Shown here in pieces: positions 1-18,871 of a stretch of 24,178 nt of DNA. The notes below the pieces were generated by a model. The model was not told the origin of the DNA and made no database searches. It saw nothing but the letters and a program-made list of their open reading frames with translations. The position numbers and the translations under genes were made by a program. This DNA is from an uncultured virus (IMG/VR IMGVR_UViG_3300031994_000060) (lineage: Duplodnaviria > Heunggongvirae > Uroviricota > Caudoviricetes). Location of the stretch: IMG/VR virus record IMGVR_UViG_3300031994_000060. One strand, 5' to 3'. Every line of letters begins with the position of its first letter. The first letter of the stretch is position 1.

Positions 1-3000
1 ACCAATCCTTTCAAATCATTGTAATATTCTTTTGGAATTCCTCATCTGTTATTATATCAGAACTTTTTACTGAATATACATTTGAATTTCATAAATCTAT
101 ATCAAATGAGAATTCTCTATTAGTAAGAACTGTTTGAGATTCTGGATAGAATGGTTGTGTAGAGAAAGTTACAGTAAAGTTGTTTCATTCACGAACAATC
201 TTTCAAGTATCCCTAAGCTCTAATAAAACATCTTGTGTCATCCATGAGAAATCAGAAACCAACCCTCAACCATATACATATTGGTTTAGATCTTCTGCTG
301 ATTTCATTACACTAGATTTGTTTATTGCTTCATATAAATCATTGAAGCTAGCTCTAGTTCCATCAGCAAAATCACTTTTGATTTCTCATAAGAATGCTCA
401 ACGTCATACAAGACTTCTTGAAGTTCAAACTTTTAAGTCTTTATCTGACATTCATTCATATTGTTTTAATATTGATAATGTGGCGTCAGAGAATGTATCT
501 CAGAATCTTAAACTGTTTTTAGCTGGATCATATCTTTCAAAGAAGTCTTTAGCTTCTGGTGATAATAGACTATAATCTAATCAAGCATTACTAGCATTAA
601 GATCTATTGTTATATCTCAGTAGTCCACTCTTCATTCATAGATATCTTCAAATAATTCCATAGCATTAGTATCTGAGAATAACAACTTCATCTTTTCCCA
701 AAGATCATTGAAGAATGCTATTACATCATTACTTAATCATAGTGCTTCATTGTATCTATTATTAACATATTCTCAGAATCTTTCTGCTAACCATTCTTCA
801 GTAATCTGTGTTTGATATGCTTTCTCATCTTCAGCTCTTAGCTCAGCATAGATTTCGTCATATCATCTAGAACTAGCAAAAGATTCTATCTGATCCTTAT
901 GCCTATAATAAGTATTCTCATATAAATCAGCTATTCTTTTTTTAGTCCATTTCTTATCATGCATTAGTGATATAGCTTCATGGAACCATTCATGTCATAG
1001 AGTTCAAGATAATACAAGATCAGGATTAATTACAATAGCATGTAATTCTCTAACATGTGCGGCATTAGCTCTTCAACTCATAATATCTTGAGCTGCTGCA
1101 TCAATCTGTTCTTTATATATTATCTGTTCTTGTTCAGTAAATCATCTAGTTCTAATTTCTCAAGTTCTTCTATCAACTTCTATTATTCTTTGACTAGGTA
1201 ATCTTCTTGAGATATCATTTATTCTTGCAGTAACTTCTCTCTGAGATAAAGGTCTTTCATTCATAACTCATACCTCATTTCATGAAGCTTTTGCTTTAGC
1301 TAATGCATCAAATTCTTCTTCTGTTAAGTCTCAAAGTTTTCTTTGATTCTTATATGCAAACTCTTCTTCTCGTCTTCTATCATATTGTTCTAGTTCATAC
1401 TTCTTAGAATATGCAGCTTTTCTTCATGCTTCGTCTCATTCAAAAGAAGCCTTATTAATTTCTTCTTGAGCTTGTGCTAAAAGATTATCAACTTCGGATT
1501 TCTGGTATTCAGAAATCTTTTCTTGGATTTGGCTTGTAGCTTTTGTAGTCTTCTTCTTATATTTCTTTAAGGCTCATTTTCTTTCTAGCTCTCATAATTT
1601 ATTATTTAATTCTCAAATACGTTTTAGATCAGCAGCAGTATCTGTCAACTTTTCCATTTCTATAATACTCTTAGATAATGCTTTTAATATTCCTTTATAA
1701 ATTTCTGGATGATCTAAAACATCTTGAAGTAATTGTTCTTCTGTCCAATCCATAAGTCATTTTCTTTTAGCCCAATCAACAAGCAATTCTTTTTCTCAAT
1801 CAGACATATCAAGAATCTTCTCGTCTTTATATAATGCTAACAAGATATTATCTCTTCTGTTCCTTAATCTTTTTATCTTGGCATCCTCTAATCTTTGTGG
1901 TTCTTTTCAGAACATTGAATATCAATAGATATTGATAAGATCATTATCATTAGTAATAACCTTATTCTCTCAATACATAATATTCTTAATCTCCAGTTCA
2001 GAAGGAGTAAATTTTCAAGAATCAGGATTCTTTATTCTATCTATTGTTCTAATGATTTGAGCATCTGTAAGTTGTGTATCTGGATATTGATTAATATAAT
2101 TCTTAGCTCTTGATACATAATCTTCACCAACACCTAATTGTTTAGCAACATCTCTCCATGATCAAGATCTAATAGGAATATATCTTCAGAATTTATCATT
2201 TCTGAATTCATCTATTTTATTATTAAGATATCTTTCAGGAGTCATACCAGGAGTAGATCTTAGTTTGTGATACATATCTGCTGGCATCTCTACACCATAA
2301 AGTTCTTTATAAATTTCTTTATAATAGATATCTTCATCAGGTACATCAACCTTTACTTTAACTTCGTAATATCTATCTTCTATAATTTTATTACCTCTTT
2401 CTATATCAGCATCATCTAAGAATTCTACTCTCTTAGCATATTGTCTAGTTTTAGAATCTGTAAGATATGCTTTTACTTTAGTATCACCAATAGAAATTAC
2501 ACCAACAGGTTTTGGATCGTTAGCTCTATATAAGTTATAGATTCAACCATCAGTTGTTTCATAATGGAATGCTTCTACTGTTCCATCTTCTCTAGTAAAT
2601 AATACTGTTCCTTGAGGATGTGTTTCTTTAAATACTTTACTATCTCAGAATTTATACTGATCTACTTTTCATTCATATTTTCATTGTTTATCAAAGATAG
2701 GGGTTTTTACTTTATATGAAGGAATTCTAAATACATCTTCTCTTTGAAGATCAATAGCTATTCAATCATTTGTGATATTGATTCTTCTATTTGTCATCAT
2801 GGCTGTTAGAAGATTTTGTTTATCAACAGGTGATAAAGTCTTATCTCTCATAACATAATTGAAATAACTTTCAGGAACTCTATCAGTATATCCTGGAATA
2901 AGTTCTCTAAATCCAGCATAAGAAGTTTGTCACTTTCTTATATAGATACTGAAATTACTCCATTGTTCCCATGTAGTAGTTCTTTCTGCTATCTCTTGTC

Positions 3001-6000
3001 AAGTCCTAATAGTATCTCTTGTAACAACAGTATCATTCCTAAATGTTTTATCAAGATCAGTATTAAATACTTTTAATTCAGTTTTTCATTTAACTACCTC
3101 AAAATCTACGCTCTTTCAAGATCAAGCTAAATCTCATAGTAGTTGGATACTTAATACTCTACTGTTAGGATAGATATCTTCTGGTAAATATTTTCATCAA
3201 TACTTTTTTAGTTTAGAGAAATCAACATCTGCTGTTGTAGTAATAGTAGCAATATGGATTTCATTGCTATCATATACATGATATACTACTGTTCCATCAG
3301 ATGTATCTACTCATTGTCTTTCATATGTAGCTTTTATAACTCATTCCTCATTTCTATTAAATGGAGTTATAATATGATCCTTATCTGCATGAACTTTTAC
3401 AATAGCATTTCAATCTTCTTTATTTACTTTAAGATAGATTTCTCATTCATTACCGAAAATCTTTTTCTCTTCATAAGTATCATTGAAAACATTTCTACCT
3501 AAAGCTCTTTCCTTAGTTCATTTACCACTATCATCTATACCATAGATATGACTACCTTTTCAAATCTTTCAATCCAAATCTCATTCGATAGCTAAGATAT
3601 TTCAATTCTTATCAACCCTTCTCCAATTTCTTAACTTCATTTCAGCTTCTTCTTTTGTAAGTCAGACATTGATATCATTGATAATATCTTCATACAAATT
3701 TATTCACATATATTTAAGATCAGGATTTCATCACTTTGCAGGATCCTTAGCATCTTCAAAAGATTTATATATAAGCCAATTACTTTCATCTTTAGGTCAA
3801 TTCAATACGAAATCAGCAACATGATTAGCTCTAGCTTCTGATACAAGCTTAGCATCATATGCTCTTCAGAATTCCTTTATTGCTGATACTAATTCTTTAT
3901 ATGAAATATCTGCTATTGTTTTATTTTTAAATCTTTCTTTTAAGAAATATTGGAATGTATTAAACACAGTAGGTCACATAAGTTTTAGTCACTCATATAA
4001 TGCTCATTTGTTTAGATACTTATTCTCAATAAAATTATTAACATATCTTGCTAAGTGTCTACTCATCCATCCATCACCAGCCTCATCAATAGGTCATTTT
4101 CCCATAAATGTTTCTTTAGTTTTTGGAGCATTAAGTAAATCATACTTATATAGATTTAATCTAATAAGCCTATTCTTAAGAAGATCTTCTCTAATCTTTT
4201 TTATATTCTCTTTACCTGCAGGTGTAAAATGTCGTTTATGATCTTTTACATCTTGTTCTATCCGTCATGCTTTAGAATATTTATCCTTATATTTTTTTAC
4301 TGCTAATTTTAATGTATTGTTCTTAACATACTTTCTTTGTGCTTCAATAAGCTTCTTTACATTACTAAGATTAGTAAAATTATCTAATGTCTCTCATCAG
4401 TACAACTTAGTTCTAGCATTAGATACTTTATTCCAGAAAGCCTTCTCCTCTTTAGGAGTAGCGTCTTTCTTTAGATTCCATTCTAGTGTTTTAGTGGTTT
4501 TACCATCAGGTCATTTAGTGTATTTACTTCTAACTAACCTATTAACACTAGGATCAACAGACTTATTGAATTTTAGTTTTAAAGCTTCATCATTATCTTT
4601 AATAAGTTTCTCTCCAAAATCATCAATTGCTTTTCTAGCTATATCAGACATAGCCTGAACCTTTGAAGTGAATTGTCATTTAGTTACATACTGAGTTTCA
4701 TCTGCTATAAGTCATGTCTCTTCTCTAATCTTAGTTCAGAGTTCTTTGATATCTTGGAGTGACATCTTAGACATCTTATCTTTTACTTCTGCATCAGATA
4801 ATCCTTTTCATGTTTTAGGATCTTTATATACATCTCTATACCACCAAGTAACCCAACCGGCATCTTGTGATTGGAGTTTTGTTAATCATAAAGAGTTATT
4901 AAACTGTTTTGCTCTAATCCATCCTGAAAACATTCATCAAAAGATATCCATAACGAGATCAGAATATTGATAATCATAAGGAGTCATTCATTGGAATGTT
5001 GCACTTGTTAATGCTTCTTCTGCTAACCAACGTCATAGATTCTCTAAACGTAATTCTCGTTTATCTTTAGTAGTTAAATTCTTTAATCATTCCTTAGCGT
5101 CTTTTCTTCTTTCTGCTATTCACTTAAAGAATCTCTTAGTTGCATCACTAACTCTTTTAAAGTATGTTCAAGAATCAACTAATCATTTAATCTTCTCTTG
5201 TTCTGTTATAATCTTTTCACCAGCATCAGCCAATTTCTCTCAAGCACTAGCAACCTTCTCTGTATTCTTAGCGAGCTTATCTATTTTACTTCACTTAGAA
5301 ATTACAGTTCACAGGTTTTTAAGTTCGGCTGTTTTTACTGGTAAATCAACAGCTTTTGCTTCAATAAATGCTGTAATAAGATCATCGATTACTGATTCTT
5401 TATTTCAGATATAGTTACCAACTTTAGCATACCATGGCATCTGTTGATATACTGGATGTACTCTTTGTTTTAAATCGAATATAGAAGAGTTCTGTGCTCC
5501 ATAGAAATAAGCATTAATATCATCCAACGTAGGCATATTAGTATTTCAGCTCTTATCCCATAATGAAGATAATCATTGTGCAGTAGCTTCTGTTGTTCAT
5601 GCTACTTGTCATGCTAATGATGATACTTTACCTCACAATATAGCACTAGCATATGGTAATGTATTCACTTCTGCCAATGTCCATTCTTTTAATAATTCTG
5701 GAATAGATGAAGAATTTACAACATTACCTCAGTGATCTAAAACTTTCTTAGCCCATATAAGTTGGTTTGTTGTATAATAGGTATCTTCTCCTGTACTTCA
5801 GATAGTGTTTACTAAATTAATTAATGTTCTTTCTTTATTTGTAAGCGTTTTACTTTTTAGTAGTTTATCCAAATTCAACCTTAATGGATTTCAGTTTTGT
5901 GTAATTATCTTAGCAATACTCTCTTTAGATTGGTCATGAGTCTCAAGAATATCTCAAACCATATTTATATAAGAACCTTTCTGTTTCATTAAATAGTTTC

Positions 6001-6889
6001 TAAGATTCCTATAATCACTATCATCACCGATGTTAGCCATAAGCTGATCTAGACTTTCGAATGTTAATGCAATAGCTCTATCTTGGAAAGCTGATTCAAG
6101 ATCTCATAATGTTTCATCAAGTGTACTCTCACGTCCTCATGGATTTCTTGAAGCAATATATAGATTCTTAATCATCTGATTAGCTTTCTTCTCTACAAGT
6201 TTTTTAGTGTTTACATTAGAAAAGATACGATTAAATTCATCCTGTGTAATCGTTTCTATTCATGATCAACCTGTGGTTTGTGCTTTAAGGTTTGGATCTT
6301 GGATACCAAATAACTTCTTAACATTTGGTGTTAAGTTTTCTGTAATATAATTAGTATCTACTTTAGTTGCTCAATATTTATTACTCTGAAAATTATCTTC
6401 TCTTATAGAGTCTGGAACAATAAGATTTAATATCGTAGACCTAACTCAATGTGGTCTATCTGCTACTGTATATTTGTCTAGTTCCTCTTTATCATCTTTT
6501 AATAATTGTAATTGTGTAGGAGTTAGTGTATCCTCATTAGCTTTTAAAGTATTGTATTCATTTAATGTATTAAGATATTCTGCTCTAAGTCCATCAGTAT
6601 TCTGAGATACTCAATCTTTCTTTAATCAATACAAAGCTCTATCAACATCTTGTTTATCTTTAGATAAGAATTTACTTGCAAGTCATACAACTCATTCAGC
6701 AATTCAATCTTTAAATCATGATAACCAAGATTCCTCTTCAGCTATTTTATATGTATTTCAGTCGGCTCATACTTTTGTTCATGAACTTTCTTTAGTCTCA
6801 TCTTGGGGTTCGTTTCAAGTCACTTTAGCTCAAATCTTTTTTGCTCAAGTTTTTAACAATCAATTCATGAAGAACTCGACTACTCACAT
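1..6889 (-). CDS. Giant (>2,290 aa, 3'-truncated by window edge) probable virion/ejected polyvalent protein with zincin-like metallopeptidase domain
   Basis: ATG at 6889 (MGVVEFFMNGLLKTGAKKIG with TGA=Gly). The same frame was open at every segment I translated, down to base 2. HEWFH at 994-980, followed by EEWLAERF and FFNDLWEKMKLLF...LFEDIYEGR, the typical MPTase signature of large phage proteins. Lys/Glu coiled-coil region at about 1300-1700. Confidence 0.85.
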
Positions 6890-6919: not shown

Positions 6920-9241
6920 TTAATACCAGAACGCATTATCTACTACCTCATATCTTGGTTGTGGTCTAGTATCTTGTAGTAATCCTCTAGGATCTTTAGA
7001 TTCCTGCTGTTGCATTGCATATTCCGTAAAGTTATCTACTTCAAATTTATTATGTGATAATCCTAAATGAGTCCAGAATGTCCAAAGACACATAAGCAAA
7101 CAATCTACGAAGTCGTCATGTCATGTCGCTCATTTATATTTAGACTTATTTGTATATTCATTCTTGAACTCAACAAAGTTACCAAGCTGCTCTATAAGTT
7201 GTTTACAATCATTATCCCAGATCTCAACCATTCAGTTATCGAACATCGTCTGTGCTGCTTCCACCATAAGCTTCTTAGGAACACGTTCCTCTGATGGTCT
7301 AGCTCATTTCCTAACATTATCTCCTCATGTCCAGAAATAGAGATATTGGAAGAAGATCCTTTGTCACCACATCACATCAACTACTGCTGGATGTGTAGAG
7401 TCCATAACTTTTAGGATAGGACAGTTATGCATCTTAAGCTCTTCAATAGCCTGTTTAAGTAGTTCGGCTTGCGGAATAAACGAAGATTTATCTTTGAAGT
7501 TAAGTGATCGTTCTTTACGAACAATTACTTTATTTCTCGATTCATCATATCCTGTAGCCAATACGGCTGAAGTATCAGCTGTCTGAGCTGGATCATAAGC
7601 TAGAACTATTCTTTTGAAGTTCGGCTTGATAATCTGTTGGGCATCTCATACACCACTAACAAAATGAGGCTGAGGATCTTGAACAAATCTTACTGGCTGG
7701 ATATATGGCTTGAAGTTCAACACCGCTTGAGATTCGGTAGATCTACAATAAAGCTCACGCATATATCTATCAGGATCATCTGCTAGATTTTTCTTAACCA
7801 TATCTTTATTGATAATCACTTCCACATCGTCAATAGTGTACCTCAATCCCGCACATTCATCAGGGATTATTCAAGTACGCTCTTTCTCTTTTCGTAGTGT
7901 AATGATATGTTGATCAATGTCAATAATTTTTGAGCTTTCTTTTTCGTATTCATTACAGAGTTTTACTGGCCAATCATATATTCTATCAACTCATTCTTCG
8001 TCTTCAGAATAGAATGTAGAGATTACAAGTAATCTCGCTCATTCGTTATCAACGATCGGCATAATCTTATCAACAATTCTTTTAGGGATCAACAACGCCT
8101 CGTCGATAATCACAGCATCTGCTGCATCACCGACTGCTGGAAGTTTTCAGAGTGCTGAATAGAATTTGGTTTGTGCCAAAACTCTTTTCTTACCTTGTGC
8201 ATCATAGGTGATGAGTGATAAGATATGGTTAGCTGAATCGTAATTCATCATCTGTTTAAGCCAATCAAATTCGTTAGTTAATGCACTTACATAGTCCATC
8301 ACTTGTCATACCGCATCAAAATCTTTTGATAAGAAAATTACAGAACGAGGTCTGGTTCCGGCTTTATAGTTGTGTGCCAACATCTCTTTCAAGATCTCCT
8401 GAGATATCAAAAACGTTTTTCAACTACGTCTCGGTGCTAATACAACTGTCCTTCTTCACATACGCTTTGAGACGTCGGATTGTCGCCGCTGGTTGAGAGT
8501 TGATCTCTGATGGTATTTATATTTAGGGTTGGCATTCCATTCCTCTAATGCACGATTCAGCATTTGGTAACGGAGTGCGGCAGTATAGTTATCTTTTACT
8601 GTAACGTTTAAATCGTATTTAGGAAAATAGAAATCGTAGTCTTGACCTACTTGAAAGTCTTGGGCTTGTGAATTAGCTTTAGGCTTGAATACGATATGGT
8701 CATGCTGAGCATATCACATGATTGATTCTTTCATCATGATCAATTCCCCGTCCATCCCCATAGACTGTTGTTTGAGTTCTGAAGATCTTCTGATTGCTTC
8801 TTCTACAACATCAGGGTCTTCCGACTGAAGCTGTTCTTCGATTTCCTCTTGGATAGCTACGATAGGTTTCTGGCATATAAGATACAATTCTTCACCTCAA
8901 GTAGAATTTACATAGATATCATAATTCTCAGTTAGTGCTTTATGAGCTCAGAGCGTATAGTCAGATATGAAACCTAGATTAGATAGTTCGATAACTTTCT
9001 CATACCGAGAGAGTGTTATATTCTTTCGGTGTGGATCGTTTTCTGCATCTTCGTGTGTGACATCGTAGAACGGGAATTTGAATTCATATGGTACTCAATA
9101 GAGATTAGGTATGACAAAAGTCCTGAAGTCAGGATTCTCTTTCTTGAACTTCAAGGCGGCTTGTCCATCGAGCACATCGTTCAGATTAGTACCGTCATAG
9201 ACTAATCATTTAGTGTAATCTCTAGTTAGGTATCAAAGCAT
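6920..9241 (-). CDS. terL: Terminase large subunit (773 aa) with long N-terminal extension
   Basis: With TGA=Gly: Walker A VLAPRRS[TGA]KT (TGA at 8422-8420), Walker B AVIIDEA, coupling motif LLVIST, RNase H-like nuclease VLAYDPAQTADTSAV and C-terminal GHDDFVDCL. Joins the supplied fragments 7364-7561 and 7646-7846. Confidence 0.93.
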
Positions 9242-10738: not shown

Positions 10739-10939
10739 GGTTGATTTTGTATTGATGTAAAAGGCACCGTGTATATGTGAGAATAAAAATTACAAAGGCA
10801 GGTGTATGAAAGGACAAAGGTTGTGTATGCAAGGAAAAGCACCTGCCGATTTCGAAATTAGCATAATGGCGCATGAAAGGGACAAAACAAAACAGAAACC
10901 CGCCTAGCCGTTACCGGTTTAGGACACCATTACAACTAA

Positions 10940-10967
10940 AGAATAGAAAATTACATAAGAATGTCAA
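10940..10967 (-). promoter_or_regulatory. Candidate sigma70 promoter for the leftward packaging/virion operon
   Basis: Minus strand TTGACA-16 nt-TATTCT, about 200 nt upstream of the ATG at 10738. Confidence 0.5.
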
Positions 10968-11378
10968 GAGAAAATGGGCGCCTTTAGGGAGTGGGTTTTG
11001 GAGGCCGGTTTGGAACTGGGGGGCTAGTTTATCATTTCTTACATACATTGGGGGTTCTACTACTAACTACCTATCTAATATATATATAATAATATATGCG
11101 ATAGCATATGAGAACTGGAACTATAATAAAAATCGGTATGTAAAAATTTATAGATCTACGGAAAAGGTGGGGCGAAGCCCCACACCCAAAATGATTTCGA
11201 TCTACTTAGGAGAAATACTTAAGAGTACAAATGAGGGTCGGCGGAGAGAGATTCCGCCGAAATGAAATTTGCTTAGGGAACCTCTTTGGTTCCCCTGCCC
11301 TCCAGCCAAAAGAAACTAGACTAGAATAGGCAGACTATAACGACGACGGCGACACGGTTAGAGTACCGGATGACTCCT

Positions 11379-11710: not shown

Positions 11711-12283
11711 ATGGCTATCGACTTAAACACAGTAAATCCTATCGCCTTTACAGATTGAAAGGAAATTTTAACCGCCTCAAATGGAAGTTTTTATTTAAAC
11801 AATAGACCAGATGGAAACGGACAAATAGAGGGAGTAATTACTTTTTGTTATAATAAGAAACCAAACGAGGAACTAATAAGAACAGAAGAGGGAAACCTTG
11901 AAGAGCTAAACAGGGAACTAAACAACCTCTTAAAACTTGGAGCAGATAATTTAGAACTAAGAGCACAAAGAAACAAGATAAGACACAAAGAAGACTTTTT
12001 GAAAATGATAAGGAGCGATAGAGCTTGGAGCGATTACGAATGTTATGGAATAAATGATATTGAAACACTAAACAGCCGAAGACAATTGGCACTATCTTGT
12101 AAAAAAAATAATGTATGGAGTATAGCATACAAGACAGGAGCACGTTTCGACTTTTGAAATGGAGAGCCTTGAAATTATAATGAAGATATTAATTTTGAGG
12201 AAGATGGTTATTTATTGACTAAGCGGGAACGAAGATACACTTGAAAGGAGAAACAAGAACCAAACGAGAGAAAGGACAATTAA
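11711..12283 (+). CDS. 190-aa hypothetical protein, paralog A of 14115-14639
   Basis: MAIDLNTVNPIAFTDGKEILTASNGSF...YNKKPNEELIRTEEGNLEELNREL...; open with TGA=Gly and aligns end to end with 14115-14639. Confidence 0.9.
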
Positions 12284-12329: not shown

Positions 12330-12494
12330 ATGCAGAGAATAATGAAAGACAACAAAGCAAAGAGCAGGAACCCTATGAAAGACACAATACCAGCCGCCCC
12401 TAAGGGGAAAAAAATGTGAAGTAAAAAGAGATTTACAAGACAACTACCACCGCCAGAGCTTGAAGATATATTATGCTGATACAGAAAAGCCTAG
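12330..12494 (+). CDS. 54-aa basic hypothetical protein
   Basis: MQRIMKDNKAKSRNPMKDTIPAAPKGKKMGSKKRFTRQLPPPELEDILCGYRKA; ends within a terminator hairpin. Confidence 0.6.
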
Positions 12495-12513
12495 TCATTC
12501 ACTAGGTTTTTTT
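12485..12513 (+). terminator. Rho-independent terminator, possibly bidirectional
   Basis: AAAAGCCTAGT-cattc-ACTAGGTTTTTTT. Confidence 0.7.
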
Positions 12514-12519
12514 AATATC

Positions 12520-12927
12520 AAAAAAAATTTCGGCAGAGGAAAACCTAGGTTTTCCTCTGCACTCTTTTCCTCTAAATGTTTTTTGTTGTCTTGTGTCTGA
12601 TTGTCAAAAAGGTTTTGTGTTGTCTCTCATCAAAGGTTACATAGGTATGTGTTTATTCGGACGGCTACCAGATGCACGACAGTCGTCGGCATCTGACAGC
12701 CGTCGGCTAAGGTAGTGTTGTCTCTGATCCGCGGGCAAAAGGTGTGGCTGCTAGGGCAGCCACTTCGTGTCCATGCTCACTGTGTTCGCGACAGGCTTCC
12801 AGCCTGTCCGCAAAAATTTTATTCTAAAATTTTTGTAGGAATTTTTTTGTCTCTAATCTGTGGAAAAAAAATTACATAAACAAATTTCATTATGTCAATA
12901 TAACCAGGCGATTTCCGTGTCATTTTT
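12520..12927 (-). ncRNA. Candidate ~400-nt structured non-coding RNA
   Basis: Five GC-rich or perfect hairpins and no credible ORF. Lies between a minus-strand promoter (12934-12962) and a minus-strand hairpin plus U-tract (12560-12520). Tandem G-U pairs form only on the minus strand. Confidence 0.5.
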
Positions 12928-12933
12928 TCACCT

Positions 12934-12962
12934 ACTATATACACTTTCGTTCGCTGTGTCAA
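12934..12962 (-). promoter_or_regulatory. Near-consensus sigma70 promoter
   Basis: Minus strand TTGACA-cagcgaacgaaagtgta (17 nt)-TATAGT. Confidence 0.7.
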
Positions 12963-13555
12963 TGATTTTTTTGCTTCATTTTTCCAATTTTTTTGAGGTT
13001 TATTTCGGTATAAATATTTTTATCTGTACGATTTTTAACATAGTTCCCAGTTTCCATATGATAAGTAATATAATTTTTTTTATAGTGAAATAAAGGTTAG
13101 AGTATTGTACATATTAGAGTGTTTTTTTATTGGATTATCTAGTCCAATTTTGTCAAACTTTTTTTTGACAAAACATACCCATAAAAAATCGTGTTTCATA
13201 GAAACATACACAAATGTTTATTTCATTATAATTTTTTTTATATTACTTATTAGTTCTCATCTAACATATCATATAAAAATAATATATATAAATATATTTA
13301 TAATGAAATAAATAATAAAAAAATAAAAAATCAGATTAAATATTTCTATTGACAAATCATTTTTTTCTACCCCCAAAGTATAGAAAAAATTGTATTTCGA
13401 GCGACACCCGGAATTTGAAATCCCAGTTCAGAAGCCAACCTCATTTCCAACTGTGTAAAGATATTTTTTGACAACCAACTAACTACAGATTTGCTTATGT
13501 AATTTTTATAATTTGTAAATATAAATAAATTTATATTAACAATTTAATAATATGT

Positions 13556-13665
13556 CTAGCCAAAAAAAATCACAAGAAAGAATGGAAAAATTTTTGGCGG
13601 TACCCAACCACCAAAACTTTTTCTCATTCTTTCAATGTAATTTTTCTTGTCTAGTAGTGTTGTCT
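13556..13665. repeat. Long imperfect hairpin, copy 1 (copy 2 at 14672-14781)
   Basis: GAAAGAATGG...TTTTGGCGGT-accca-ACCACCAAAA...TCATTCTTTC, followed by GTGTTGTCT. Confidence 0.75.
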
Positions 13666-13699
13666 GTTTTGGTTGTCGGACCCATTCAGGGATCCGCCA

Positions 13700-14043
13700 A
13701 CCAACTGAGTTCGTTCCTACTCAGACTCTCCCCAGCGGTGTGACAACCCCCGTGGTTTTCACACTTTCCGGAGACGGCACCTCTAGTGCCTCAAATGGAA
13801 GGGCGCTCGCGCGCCCCACACCCCACTCAGGGAAACCCCCTCTCCTGTGGTTTCCCTGAACCCCCTTCCGGTGAGAAAGTCGGCGGGACAAGGAGTGTCT
13901 GCCAACACTTGACTCAGCAGACACATCGTTATTGATTTGGTTTTCTTTCCAAGAAAACCGCCCGCCTTGCCACAATCCGTAATGAAAGTAAAGAGAAGCA
14001 GGGGCCGTCCCTAAAGGGCACCCTCCCCTGTTCTCTTGACTTT
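13700..14043. ncRNA. Candidate GC-rich multi-hairpin structured RNA or ssDNA element
   Basis: At least seven consecutive stems in a GC-rich island flanked by very AT-rich DNA. ORFs across it have non-native composition. Confidence 0.45.
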
Positions 14044-14114
14044 CAAAACTATTTTGTGGCAATATTAAAAGTGTTATTTTTTAATAACATTTTTATTCTT
14101 TAAACATTATCACA

Positions 14115-14639
14115 ATGTTAAATCTAGAAAACATTTCAACAGAAAAATTCCCAGCTAAAAAGGAATTTCTTATCTGTAGTAATTGAAGCTTCACCATTTC
14201 TGAGAATGGTATTGTTAGGTTTACTTATGCTAAGAAGCCTAACAAAGAACTTATTCGTTCAGAGAATGCTAATCTTCACGAGCTTAACAAAGAGCTTAAA
14301 TGTGCTATTAAATCTAAAGCGGATATGTATGAGCTTAGAAGTATCAGAAGTAAGATAGCTTCTAAAGAAAAATTTATTGAAGTTATTTCTAGGGAAATGG
14401 TACCAGCACAATATGAATGCCGAGGATTAGATAACGAAGTAGCATTCAAAATGTTTCAAGAGCTTGCTAAGAAAGCTAAGAGTAATAATGTGCGAAGTGT
14501 AGCTTATGCTACAGGGCTTAGGTTTGAAGAAGAAGAATGTCCTAATGAAGACATTGAGTTCAACGACCCAGACGGAATGCTAATTACTTATCGGGAGTGG
14601 CATTACACAGGGAAGAAGAGTTTAAGAGAGGCCGAATAG
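14115..14639 (+). CDS. 174-aa hypothetical protein, paralog B of 11711-12283
   Basis: MLNLENISTEKFPAKKEFLICSN[TGA]SF...YAKKPNKELIRSENANLHELNKEL...; extends supplied ORF 14325-14639 upstream. Confidence 0.9.
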
Positions 14640-14655
14640 GCTTCTCTTTTTTTTT
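14624..14655 (+). terminator. Rho-independent terminator
   Basis: AAGAGAGGCC-gaata-GGCTTCTCTT followed by a T-run. Confidence 0.8.
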
Positions 14656-14671
14656 GTTATTAGCAATAGGT

Positions 14672-14781
14672 ATATCAAAATAAATTACAAAGAAGAATGG
14701 ATAAAATCTTGCGGGTCCCCAACCCACAAGATTTATATCTCATTCTTCTGATTGTAATTTTATTTTGTTATCGTGTTGTCT
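14672..14781. repeat. Long imperfect hairpin, copy 2
   Basis: GAAGAATGG...AATCTTGCGGGT-cccca-ACCCACAAGATT...TCATTCTTC, followed by GTGTTGTCT. Confidence 0.75.
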
Positions 14782-14928
14782 AGTAGCTATGTGGCTACTA
14801 CTTTGGATCCTACTATGGCTACTACTTTGACTAGCCGTGTGGCTAGCTGAGGATATATATGTATATATTATATAATGTAGGTAGAGGATTATTCACACCG
14901 AATGGTAGGTTCATAAAGGAGAGAAAGA

Positions 14929-15030
14929 AAAATGAAATGAAATGAAATGAAATATAAATGAAATAAAAAAAATGAAAATAAAAAATAAAATGAAATGAAA
15001 TAAAATAAAAATAAAATGAAAATAAAAAAT
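14929..15030. repeat. A-rich degenerate (AAATG/AAAAT)n microsatellite
   Basis: aaatgaaatgaaatgaaatgaaatataaatgaaataaaa..., about 100 nt with no C. Confidence 0.85.
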
Positions 15031-16466: not shown

Positions 16467-16493
16467 TAATTTATATGGATTATTCATACCGAA

Positions 16494-16628
16494 ATGCAGA
16501 ACATAGAAGAATTACAGCAGACAGCAGACGAGCTTAAGGAAGCTAGAGATAATTCCGAAGACGAAGACGATTGGAATTATTATGATTATAAATTGCTTAA
16601 GGTGTTAAAAGCAATTGAAGATTTATAG
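16494..16628 (+). CDS. 44-aa acidic hypothetical protein
   Basis: MQNIEELQQTADELKEARDNSEDEDDWNYYDYKLLKVLKAIEDL; ATACCGAA-ATG start context. Confidence 0.7.
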   Translation: MQNIEELQQTADELKEARDNSEDEDDWNYYDYKLLKVLKAIEDL

Positions 16629-16655
16629 TTTTTTATATTTCTAAATAATATTAAT

Positions 16656-16847
16656 ATGATAAATTACAGAAGTTATTGGATAGTACAAAAAGGTACTAAC
16701 TCATTTTTAATCCTTGATCAGGATAAAATGCCAGTGGATATTCAAACTACATTATCGAAGAGTAAACATCTTATTGATGTGATACTTGATTCAACGGTAT
16801 CATCTACAACAATAGAAGATATCAATGAACTAGAAAATCTATGTTAA
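16656..16847 (+). CDS. 63-aa hypothetical protein
   Basis: Supplied ORF; fits operon spacing and has the shared upstream TTTTTATATTTCTAA motif. Confidence 0.75.
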   Translation: MINYRSYWIVQKGTNSFLILDQDKMPVDIQTTLSKSKHLIDVILDSTVSSTTIEDINELENLC

Positions 16848-16876: not shown

Positions 16877-17131
16877 ATGAAAACAATTACAGCATTGAAA
16901 CCTAAATTGGTTTCAGCCAAAGAGATTGCAGATCTCAAAACAAAATTCTGAAAATTAAAAACAACGGTGTCTACCTACACAACAAAGTATGGTACACTAT
17001 GTACATTGTATACTTTCTGGCAATGAAAGGAGAAGGCAGGACAGTTCCATGATTATTGATACTGAAAAGTATTCAAAGACTTTGTACATAAATTGTATTA
17101 TACAGACAATGAGAATTGGCTGGATAATTAA
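16877..17131 (+). CDS. 84-aa hypothetical protein
   Basis: MKTITALKPKLVSAKEIADLKTKFGKLKTTVSTYTTKYG... Confidence 0.75.
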
Positions 17132-17168
17132 TCCAGCCTTGTAATTTTATTTGTTTAATTCAAACCGA

Positions 17169-17516
17169 ATGATGGAACAATCAGAAAAAGATATCGCATC
17201 TGAGATTACAGATATACTTATGAAATGTTATCATGCGATCTGAGATAGTGATACAACTAATGAAGAGATTGATAATATTCATAATGAATTGAAGAAGGCA
17301 TGCAGACTTATCCATAATTGATTGTGAGAAGATGCCCAAATATATCTATCCGCACTTGCATCACCTGAGATTAAAGATAAGTGATCAGCATGGCCTGTGT
17401 TTGTTAACATGGTATTGCTTCAGTATATTATCTCAATGATCCATAATGAACTAGAAGACGATGATCAACCCGAAGAAGACAATTCACTCAAGAAACTTTT
17501 TACATTCAATGAATAA
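17169..17516 (+). CDS. 115-aa hypothetical protein
   Basis: MMEQSEKDIASEITDILMKCYHAIGDSD...; open with TGA=Gly. Confidence 0.78.
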
Positions 17517-17518
17517 CA

Positions 17519-17881
17519 ATGAACATCATAGATTTACCACAACCAGATCGAGAACATTTTAACAGTGATCAGGAATATTATTTGCAAGATGTCAAGTCGT
17601 GATTAAAGGCATGGTATTATTATACAGTTATGGACTACCTAAAATGATACACACCACTTGATCTTGATAAAGAAACTTATCTTGCAAATATAGAAAAGTT
17701 TTATAATATATATGTACAACATTGTATAGACCATAACATCGTTGCAATGCCAAGGAGGGAAGCTTTCGAATGAAAGGAGATCCAAGAGATCCTTGAGAGA
17801 TGGAATGATGTATATGCATATACAGAGTTTGATCCTGATATTAAAGTTAAAATCAAAGACCTGGAAAGTAACGATGCCTAA
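17519..17881 (+). CDS. 120-aa hypothetical protein
   Basis: MNIIDLPQPD[CGA]EHFNSDQEYYLQDVKSGLKAWYYY...; starts 2 nt after the previous stop. Confidence 0.78.
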
Positions 17882-18017
17882 TCAAAAAGAAGTTACTTCC
17901 CAGCACTGGAGCTGATGACTACCGTGCTGGTGTATGGATGGACAAAGCCTAAAGCTTTGAACATTCCATTTGTATAAGCGGACATGATGCAGTTTTAATT
18001 CTTAATCAATAAAGACC

Positions 18018-18062
18018 ATGGCTTGTTGAAGAAAGAAGAAAAGCTGAGGAAAGAGAAAGTAG
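18018..18062 (+). CDS. 14-aa basic microprotein MACGRKKKSGGKRK
   Basis: Has the same T-rich then ACC-ATG start context as neighbouring genes, and sits in the main unpaired stretch of the structured region. Confidence 0.5.
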
Positions 18063-18377
18063 GATTACTTTCCCTTTCGATGGATAGAGTAACTCTAAAG
18101 GTTATGATATCCAGATTTGTTTTTCATTGTGGTAAAAGGTAAAAGAGTAAATCTTGAGAATGTCGTAACCGTGAGGCCGACAAGGGTTTCTGTATCCTTC
18201 ATGGTTCTCAAGATTTATGTCTGAGAGATCCCTAAAGGGTTGATCAGGCAAGGTAGTAAGTTGTAAAAATCCTTGACCTAGATAAGTCTTTTGGTTGTTT
18301 GGCTTATCTAGGGTATGGTTGTCTGTCCCTAAAGGATAAGATAATCTATCATTATTATTTTGCAGAAACTAACAATT

Positions 18378-18417
18378 AGCCAGACGGTATGTCCCACTCA
18401 TACCGCTTGGCTTTTTG
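18378..18417 (+). terminator. Terminator-like hairpin
   Basis: AGCCAGaCGGTATG-tcccact-CATACCGcTTGGCT then TTTT. Confidence 0.6.
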
Positions 18418-18445
18418 TAATCTTTTATTCTTAATTGAACCGACA

Positions 18446-18799
18446 ATGTATACAATCAAAGCACCTAATGGAGACAAACTAACAGTTGAATTAAAGTATT
18501 GATCTTATGCAGATAATCATAATCTGTATATAGGATTAGTAGTTGATAAAGATTATGAAGATCATGAAGTGTTTAAATGAGAACCTTGGTGTGATCTCAC
18601 AGTTAATATAGGTAGTTTATTACCTAATGAAATAGCATTAGATGTAAATAATTTTCCTGATGCATTAGAGTTTGTAAAAGAAAATAATATAGCAAACTTA
18701 ATAAGATATACTACATCAGGATTTGTAAAGTATCCTATTGTAAGATTTACAGATGAATTCTTTAGAGAGAATTCATTACATATATTAGCACAGTGTTAA
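18446..18799 (+). CDS. DUF4313-like protein (117 aa)
   Basis: YADNHNLYIGL...GEPWCDLTVNI...IALDVNNFPDALEFVKENNIA...SGFVKYPIVRF matches the DUF4313 pattern as I remember it; needs HMM confirmation. Confidence 0.75.
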
Positions 18800-18871
18800 T
18801 AAAACATAGTCGTTGTAGATAGTGGTAACGACGATGTCTTATTATATCTTTTATAATCTTATACCGAACAC

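Follow-up and report, generated by a model that had tools for sequence, protein, structure and literature searches.

To our knowledge, bacteria and phages rarely carry large structured non-coding RNAs (ncRNAs), and nearly all classes discovered to date have opened up new biochemistry. ROOL, which came from rumen data, is phage-borne, measures ~581 nucleotides (nt) and is found near transfer RNA (tRNA) genes, and GOLLD is ~800 nt long. CsrB/RsmZ titrate CsrA through sites that present GGA in hairpin loops, and ToxI is a multivalent RNA that neutralises a protein via repeated units and is mimicked by phages. Passages of PMC5737381 and PMC12286853 place ROOL and GOLLD often near tRNAs, and the latter attributes the cohesion of their cages to kissing loops, A-minor contacts and stem-loops linked in a 'daisy chain'. 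In the part of PMC12550061 that treats boxB, the lambda and P22 hairpins are 5-base-pair (bp) stems with pentaloops, and the phi21 boxB RNA that binds the N peptide carries the hexaloop CUAACC (PDB 1NYB). Here we describe an element that can be compared with all of these, located at positions 17895-18420 on the plus strand of an uncultured Caudoviricetes virus (IMG/VR record IMGVR_UViG_3300031994_000060; the whole stretch of 24,178 nt is called the window hereafter), in which four hairpins built on different stems display one and the same pentaloop, CUAAA.

We are confident that 17895-18420 represents a genuine, previously uncatalogued structured ncRNA. Under the genetic code of this phage (table 25, in which TGA encodes glycine) the interval holds no believable open reading frame (ORF), at least four stops interrupting each of the six frames, and the longest started ORF within the RNA has 62 amino acids (aa). 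The minimum free energy (MFE) of the plus strand amounts to -175.1 kcal/mol versus -130.9 +/- 5.6 kcal/mol for 100 dinucleotide shuffles, none of which folds as well (z -7.94), so that the shuffle test called for by the first-pass annotation, which had been made from the sequence alone, came out in its favour. The minus strand reaches a z of -5.50 against its shuffles, the plus strand is more stable by 34 kcal/mol, and 25 of the 173 MFE pairs are G-U, in agreement with the earlier claim of an RNA rather than of DNA palindromes. All stems named in that annotation are present in the sequence at the places it gave, and its four CUAAA hairpins on different stems are confirmed. It had also recognised no known family: no match was obtained when the whole window was scanned at Rfam gathering scores, ROOL and GOLLD included, a scan of 17700-18600 (901 nt) at E ≤ 10 returned noise only (small nucleolar RNA and microRNA models), and ARAGORN predicted 0 tRNA or transfer-messenger RNA genes in the window.

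In the partition function, the mean pair probability ranges from 0.83 to 1.00 among the terminator and the hairpins that we call P1, H1, P3, P4, H2, P6, H3, P9 and H4, whereas the long-range helices of the predicted fold have a pair probability of just 0.07. Because of this difference, the RNA is best modelled as beads on a string, that is, as ~10 local hairpins lined up one after another, with an intrinsic terminator at the end, and not as a branched globular fold. The branched junction proposed earlier was not recovered, as the 13-bp stem in question encloses one continuing hairpin in the MFE structure. The complement of the loop, UUUAG, is absent from the RNA, and the CUAAA loops therefore lack an internal pairing partner; a direct-repeat search detected no repeat family inside 17882-18429. 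The terminator that closes the unit is found on the plus strand only. The parts of the element are as follows.

17895-18420 (+): non-coding structured RNA, ~530 nt; the 5' limit is approximate and the 3' end is the U-tract of the terminator
17900-17930 (+): P1, CCAGCAC/GUGCUGG (17900-17906/17924-17930), mean pair probability 0.97
17931-17976 (+): H1, 12-bp outer stem and 6-bp inner stem CAAAGC[CUAAA]GCUUUG (17943-17959), loop 17949-17953, inner stem probability 1.00; AACAU bulge on the 3' side; UAUGG begins at 17933
17990-18046 (+): P3, AU-rich three-part hairpin, apical loop 18013-18022 (AGACCAUGGC) with the 6-nt palindrome CCAUGG
18049-18078 (+): P4, GAAAG.GAAAGUA/UACUUUC.CUUUC, probability 0.98
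18081-18113 (+): H2, outer stem UGGAUA/UAUCCA and inner stem GUAACU[CUAAA]GGUUAU (18089-18105), loop 18095-18099, probability 0.96-0.97; tandem GA/GA internal loop 18087-88/18106-07; GAUGG begins at 18079
18147-18218 (+): P6, long hairpin of 13 bp, 9 bp and 3 bp, the 13-bp stem being 18147-18159/18206-18218, probabilities 0.96 and 0.70
18219-18249 (+): H3, outer stem GUCUGA/UCAGGC and inner stem GAUCC[CUAAA]GGGUU (18227-18241), loop 18232-18236, probability 0.89-0.91; tandem GA/GA 18225-26/18242-43; UAUGU begins at 18216
18277-18312 (+): P9, 12-bp hairpin CCUAGAUAAGUC/GGCUUAUCUAGG (18277-18288/18301-18312) with the 12-nt loop UUUUGGUUGUUU, probability 0.99
18317-18346 (+): H4, GGUUGUCU-GUCC[CUAAA]GGAU-A-AGAUAAUC, with (U)GUCC[CUAAA]GGAU(A) at 18324-18338, loop 18329-18333, probability 0.92-0.97; UAUGG begins at 18314; the module best kept in the distant relative L114
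18378-18417 (+): intrinsic terminator, AGCCAG.CGGUAUG-UCCCACU-CAUACCG.CUUGGCU followed by UUUUU, probability 1.00

The recurring unit consists of a 5-6-bp stem, the invariant CUAAA pentaloop and a Y-G closing pair, with a purine irregularity (tandem G.A or bulged A) 5-6 bp beneath the loop in each unit. H2 and H3 have the fuller design, with an outer stem, a symmetric GA/GA internal loop, a 5-6-bp inner stem and CUAAA; the tandem GA/GA of H3 had been pointed out before and is indeed there, and H2 carries an equivalent one that had gone unremarked. H1 (AACAU) and H4 (a single A) have a 3'-strand bulge at the place equivalent to GA/GA. The units lie 97-146 nt apart and differ in sequence, the bases 3' of the loop being GCU, GGU, GGG and GGA from H1 to H4. 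We rejected a reading of these bases as mimics of the Shine-Dalgarno sequence, as AAGGA occurs in some modules only and its GG is base-paired. Kissing of the loop with the anticodon of a host tRNA-Lys(UUU), UAAAG against UUUUA, would be conceivable.

The heptamer YCTAAAG occurs 23 times on both strands of the window versus 10.2 expected. CTAAA is found 42 times on the plus strand and is flanked by stems of at least 4 bp in six cases (6/42), and the four sites within the RNA all have stems of 5 bp or longer; the CUAAA set is the sole cluster in the window of at least four identical, non-low-complexity pentaloop hairpins. A second element, KAUGK, stands 9-10 nt 5' of YCUAAAG at 4/4 sites of the RNA versus 1/19 of the other YCTAAAG sites of the window (background frequency of KATGK, 0.0045 per position). 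CUAAA does not belong to the ten pentaloop families derived from solved structures in PMC9830547, in which it has 0 occurrences. In a motif-level alignment anchored on the loops, we compared eight hairpins, namely the four of the RNA, one at 14011 and three in the distant relative L114. The CUAAA loop is invariant in 8/8, all five stem pairs vary on both sides (12 cells), and 87.5% of the cells are paired versus 62.6% in shuffles (0/500 reach this value) and 22-45% in controls with the partner shifted by 1-3 columns, the instances having been picked partly for pairing. The comparison thus draws its strength from a loop that stays invariant while its stems are unrelated, and from the both-sided changes, not from the paired percentage.

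The element is enclosed by two genes on the same strand.

17519-17881 (+): upstream gene encoding 120 aa, no family; 14 nt separate its stop codon from the RNA block
18446-18799 (+): downstream gene, DUF4313, 117 aa from ATG 18446 (PF14190, 5.3e-15)

Close relatives were compared as contigs only, and come from bovine and goat gut, where the RNA is kept at ~98.5% identity. The goat-gut contig (X4) covers 17698-18429 with 11 substitutions, all of them listed, and one inserted base; the bovine contig (X3) covers 17611-18429 with 13 substitutions, of which 11 are listed, and 21 gap letters. A 20-nt insertion in X3 after 17893 marks the 5' limit of the conserved block, which ends at 18429. Both contigs and an RNA-type library (X24) have in common a 1-nt insertion (+G) after 18323, which rules out a conserved reading frame. 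Eight substitutions of X4 fall in the RNA: three are unpaired, and three are located in high-probability stems and all keep pairing. The three changes in these stems are 18094 U>C, which turns the closing U-G of H2 into C-G in X24, X3 and X4, 18182 A>G, which turns an A-U pair of P6 into G-U, and 18325 G>A, which turns a G-U pair of H4 into A-U. Divergence amounts to 8/535 nt (1.5%) in the RNA, to 2 changes in the 184 nt of the upstream gene next to it (1.1%) and to 4.4-4.7% in 17300-17638 (4.4% for 15/339 nt). The RNA thus lies in a low-divergence block and is not alone in its conservation. Similarity to X4 stops at 18429, just past the terminator, and other sequence replaces the downstream DUF4313 gene, while X3 has a variant joint from 18429 to 18630. 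The RNA and its terminator thus move as a module ahead of different downstream genes. In a sheep-gut metatranscriptome we found a 194-nt contig identical to 17945-18138, and in a wastewater complementary DNA (cDNA) library two 151-nt contigs corresponding to 18055-18204 and 18260-18408. The contigs of the RNA-type libraries (X23 and X24) fall inside the RNA alone and leave the flanking genes uncovered, although lack of cover by contigs proves nothing. A further 20 DNA runs have 0.21-0.39 of the sampled words in common with the locus and do not count as evidence here.

A more distant comparison was possible through the large terminase subunit (TerL), for which 38 homologs were found at E ≤ 1e-10 and 18 were aligned. 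The TerL alignment retrieved L114, a 34-kb JGI contig with a TerL 69-71% identical to that of the window. Homologs of the window genes 16494-16847 and 16877-17131 are located at 2775-2581 and 2021-1776 of L114. Directly 3' of them lies a match to the tRNA model (1752-1649, minus strand, 41.6 bits) whose anticodon-arm region is expanded by a 47-nt insertion and at which ARAGORN calls no tRNA, then two isolated T-arm-like minihelices (1099-1082 and 1056-1040, minus strand), and then ~0.7 kb of structured non-coding sequence (z -4.2) that ends in a terminator (399-366) 22 nt ahead of the next gene. Neither blastn nor nhmmer detected overall similarity between this stretch and the RNA of the window. 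What L114 keeps is the hairpin type: an H4-like hairpin (693-663) has UAUGGUUGUCU and CCCUAAAGGAU in common with H4 and shows one-sided compensations in its stem as well as an extra C that pairs with the base bulged in the window, and an H2-like (484-447) and an H3-like hairpin with a purine internal loop (445-423) are present too. Module order, number and intervening sequence are unlike those of the window. Kept hairpins in changed order would be expected of binding-site arrays, in which the sites alone are constrained.

Elsewhere the family appears narrow. The relatives L116 and G001/L117 (TerL 41-44%) contain neither a CUAAA array nor another convincing identical-loop array. Among INPHARED phages the RNA gave no match by blastn and TerL none by tblastn; single-protein scans of IMG/VR with the two flanking proteins and TerL gave no match either, nor did the TerL alignment among GTDB genomes. 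A three-loop spacing pattern hit 112 IMG/VR loci, 0/112 of which are similar to the RNA by nhmmer or blastn, an exact 24-nt core was found 0 times in IMG/VR, and a degenerate H3 pattern 0 times in JGI metagenomes. Finally, an H4 pattern retrieved 3 IMG/VR and 34 GTDB loci, which we discarded (0/37 true), as these match the short pattern only and their flanks cannot form the hairpin.

The window contains a second structured RNA, which carries a fifth CUAAA hairpin.

13540-14114 (+): second structured RNA, 49-55% G+C in a 32% genome, MFE -228 versus -139 kcal/mol for shuffles, z -14.1
14005-14021 (+): fifth CUAAA hairpin, GUCC/GGGC within CAGGGG/CCCCUG, inside 13540-14114

No Rfam model matches 13540-14114 at E ≤ 1. 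Its 3' end is formed by an AU-rich terminator hairpin (14068-14095), and the gene 14115-14639 begins 20 nt further on. The distance between CUAAA hairpin and terminator is similar in three instances, namely 57 nt here (14011 to 14068), 56 nt from H4 to 18385 and ~45 nt in L114 (437 to ~392), and these three terminators directly precede a gene. The genes 11711-12283 and 14115-14639 form a paralog pair of unknown function with homologs in L114 (6494-6018) and L117 (1482-919), and in all three phages a structured, G+C-rich long leader lies upstream of this family each time.

Further structured stretches were observed in the same part of the window. The region 12400-12880 (plus strand) is G+C-rich and structured (z about -3 to -5 in 200-nt windows), has no believable ORF and contains GUGUUGUCUCU-type repeats. 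GTTGTCTB occurs 8 times in the window versus 1.9 expected, clustered in 12585-13666 and also found in H4. The stretch 14601-14800 forms very stable hairpins (z -12 to -15 on either strand), and 3' of it we found A-rich AATGAAAT-type tandem repeats (14921-15025). A non-coding block is conserved between 10938-11087 of the window and 7862-7711 of L114 (70.6% identity over 153 nt); it sits in the divergent region between the packaging genes and an early-type gene row, and is overlapped by a basic ORF (10873-11319) whose protein similarity to L114 is weak (E 0.002).

The genome around these RNAs is recoded. Under table 11, hardly any long ORFs are found in the 24-kb window, and the gene-dense operon interrupted by the element, as the first-pass annotation had it, does not appear; under code 25 this description holds. 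Reading TGA as sense opens a 2296-aa frame holding 120 TGA codons as well as a tightly packed gene row, and the same trial with TAG or TAA failed to open a dense gene row. TGA accounts for 4.1% of codons in the window, TGG for 1.1% and GGN for just 2.1%; the invariant glycine of the TerL Walker A motif (RRS-G-KT) is encoded by TGA; and at the 20 TGA columns of TerL, 17 aligned homologs have W 144 times (the database translation of TGA) and G 123 times. Based on these codon shares, the Walker A codon and the W and G residues at the TGA columns, the code of the phage is table 25. The proteins of relatives in public databases carry W at those TGA sites. Table 25 is the code of Gracilibacteria and Absconditabacteria, and the sequencing runs that contain the locus are ruminant gut metagenomes, with long near-identical contigs in one bovine and one goat run. 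The hosts are presumably uncultured rumen bacteria of the Gracilibacteria/Absconditabacteria type. The window belongs to a phage, since its TerL (6920-9241, minus strand) matches PHROG 2 at 1.5e-18.

Next to TerL lies an ORF of more than 2296 aa (2-6889, minus strand) without a Pfam or PHROG match, which is kept in L114 (32% over 2240 aa) and L117 (24%). For the upstream gene 17519-17881, a homolog was not found in L114. Directly 5' of several start codons we observed an AYACCGAA(C)A-type motif (14886-14902, 16477-16493, 18439-18445 and 18861-18871), including the 17-nt repeat GGATTATTCAYACCGAA; no Shine-Dalgarno sequence is present at these sites, and the motif may be a phage- or host-specific signal for initiation or transcription start.

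As the best explanation, we tentatively propose, with somewhat less than an even chance of being right, that the element is a new-family ~530-nt ncRNA gene of code-25 rumen and gut phages that works as a multivalent hairpin platform, a sponge or decoy for a protein. Each of the four identical loops would offer an equivalent site at which one and the same loop-specific partner docks; the likeliest candidate would be a protein encoded by the phage or by its Gracilibacteria/Absconditabacteria-type host. The RNA would act in trans by titrating this partner, in the manner of CsrB/RsmZ and CsrA. Single-site copies in other transcripts, such as the hairpin at 14011, could then be the regulated targets, and the remaining hairpins spacers and stabilisers. 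What favours this explanation is that the RNA folds as beads on a string, that its loop is invariant whereas the stems are free to vary, that the modules differ in order and number between phages, that the intervening hairpins are not conserved, that a single-site copy exists elsewhere, and that the RNA has its own terminator and is inherited as a module. The first-pass annotation had offered a sponge or decoy, a boxB-like array and a self-assembling RNA; the pattern in L114, which keeps the hairpin type and not the order, number or intervening sequence, makes us lean, tentatively, to the multivalent platform. Several points speak against a platform. No binding partner was identified among the neighbours, no promoter was found for the RNA, and the terminator lies 29 nt 5' of the ATG of the next gene, which fits a leader equally well. 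Two of the eight X4 substitutions in the RNA (18011 and 18372) break weak predicted AU pairs, and the low divergence of the RNA may stem from a recombination block and not from selection, because the RNA is no better conserved than the neighbouring 184 nt of the upstream gene. The contigs from RNA libraries demonstrate presence and not transcription, as DNA may occur in such libraries. The distant comparison relies on one homolog, L114, and includes no ortholog-level covariation; of the six CTAAA sites in its non-coding stretch, only two have stems of 4 bp or more and a further one has 3 bp; except for two small ORFs further upstream, no gene next to the RNA is conserved in both phages; and the choice of the eight aligned hairpins partly by pairing counts here as well.

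The same hairpins could be read in cis, as a nut/boxB-like antitermination leader in which nascent CUAAA hairpins recruit an N-like factor and the polymerase then reads through 18378-18417 and later terminators, turning the downstream genes on. We regard this as unlikely. The boxB-like idea of the first-pass annotation does have a precedent, in that the phi21 loop CUAACC shares CUAA with the phage loop (PMC12550061, in the part cited above). It also agrees with the 45-57 nt that separate a CUAAA hairpin from a gene-preceding terminator in three cases, with the absence of a promoter-like site between the terminator and ATG 18446, and with the several terminators that break the same-strand gene row (17118-17138, 18385-18405 and 18809-18832). 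The idea is weakened by the accessory parts: with the boxA consensus and up to 3 mismatches, 42 sites were counted in the window versus 39 expected, none of them on the plus strand of 17882-18429, and none of the window's ORFs of 25 aa or more is a clear candidate for a small N-like protein with an arginine-rich N-terminus, the best being 10873-11319. Moreover, a known nut site has a single boxB, in contrast to four hairpins set in 500 nt of other stable structure, the CUAAA pentaloop is not of the GNRA-like boxB sequence type, and the RNA stays with the upstream side when the downstream gene is swapped. We likewise doubt that the element is an RNA-only machine like ROOL, GOLLD or OLE, which would fold or multimerise without protein and use the tandem G.A pairs and the CUAAA loops, taken as a U-turn and then a stack of A residues, for tertiary or quaternary contacts of the A-minor or loop-receptor kind. 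Its length of ~530 nt, phage location and rumen origin do resemble ROOL, a tRNA-like gene and T-arm minihelices lie alongside in L114, in H2 and H3 a G.A motif lies 5-6 bp below an A-rich loop, and ROOL/GOLLD cages are built on A-minor contacts, kissing loops and the stem-loop 'daisy chain' (in the passages of PMC12286853 referred to above). Yet the Rfam models of ROOL and GOLLD gave no match at E ≤ 10 in the 901 nt around the RNA or at E ≤ 0.1 in positions 1-10000 of L114, no junction or long-range helix is well supported, and module order and number differ between phages, which a fixed three-dimensional architecture would not tolerate. The palindrome CCAUGG in the loop of P3 could form a self-kissing dimer, but a palindrome of 6 nt may well turn up by chance in one of ~10 loops.

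That the element has no function as an RNA at all seems quite improbable to us. It would then consist of DNA-level or selfish elements (hairpin repeats, an origin or a packaging site) or be a stable 3' untranslated region. Such a view can point to the minus strand, which also folds better than its shuffles (z -5.5), to the detection of the RNA in contigs only, by which expression is not demonstrated, and to the narrowness of the family, with 0 true matches by RNA patterns in IMG/VR, JGI metagenomes and GTDB genomes. It does not account for the advantage of 34 kcal/mol on the plus strand with its 25 G-U pairs, nor for a terminator that closes the unit on this strand only. An invariant loop on differing stems is explained neither by DNA palindromes nor by repeat copies, the direct-repeat search having found no repeat family inside the RNA, and the hairpin type persists at the syntenic site of L114, where TerL DNA is ~70% identical. 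Returning to the multivalent platform, a bolder extension, to which we assign a low probability, is that phages of UGA-recoded ultra-small rumen bacteria carry at least two large structured RNAs (17895-18420 and 13540-14114) that share a private CUAAA plus G.A signal, the four-site RNA being a decoy for a host RNA-binding defence or translation factor, or for a phage regulator with single-site targets in other leaders. If true, this would constitute a phage-borne RNA circuit that titrates a protein and uses a recognition code without known precedent.

The RNA comes from an almost unstudied group, the UGA=glycine phages, which presumably infect uncultured rumen bacteria, and the second, more strongly folded RNA in the same window suggests that such phages may invest heavily in RNA-based functions. 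Its design is unusually simple, one invariant pentaloop being shown four times, which makes a search for the partner by means of a short hairpin feasible.

Compared with known systems, the element resembles ROOL and GOLLD as a large (~0.5 kb) phage-borne ncRNA of rumen origin with a tRNA-like neighbour in L114. It differs from both by the lack of a covariance-model match, from GOLLD by its length (~530 versus ~800 nt), and by the lack of supported multistem junctions or pseudoknots in a fold that was predicted without a pseudoknot program; repeated identical pentaloops are not described for ROOL or GOLLD in the parts of PMC5737381 and PMC12286853 cited here. With phi21 boxB it shares the 5-bp stem, the 5-6-nt A-rich loop starting with CUAA, the phage origin and the position 5' of terminators, boxB being recognised by a small peptide, but its four copies lie within 530 nt, and its pentaloop is closed by Y-G and is neither a hexaloop with a C-C flank nor GNRA-like in sequence. 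ToxI is likewise a multivalent RNA of repeated units; these are tandem, near-identical repeats of ~36 nt beside an endoribonuclease gene in ToxI, whereas the units of the phage RNA are dissimilar and 97-146 nt apart, and family scans found no toxin family among the neighbour genes. In relation to CsrB/RsmZ, the phage RNA differs in being phage-encoded and in its loops, which are CUAAA and not A(N)GGA, with GGA following the loop only in H4 and two L114 modules, where it is base-paired; no CsrA-like or other partner protein was identified among the genes neighbouring the RNA. The likeness to CsrB/RsmZ extends to the overall plan: a many-hairpin ncRNA with one loop motif on unrelated stems and a terminator at its end, sites that vary in number and order among relatives, and single sites in other transcripts.

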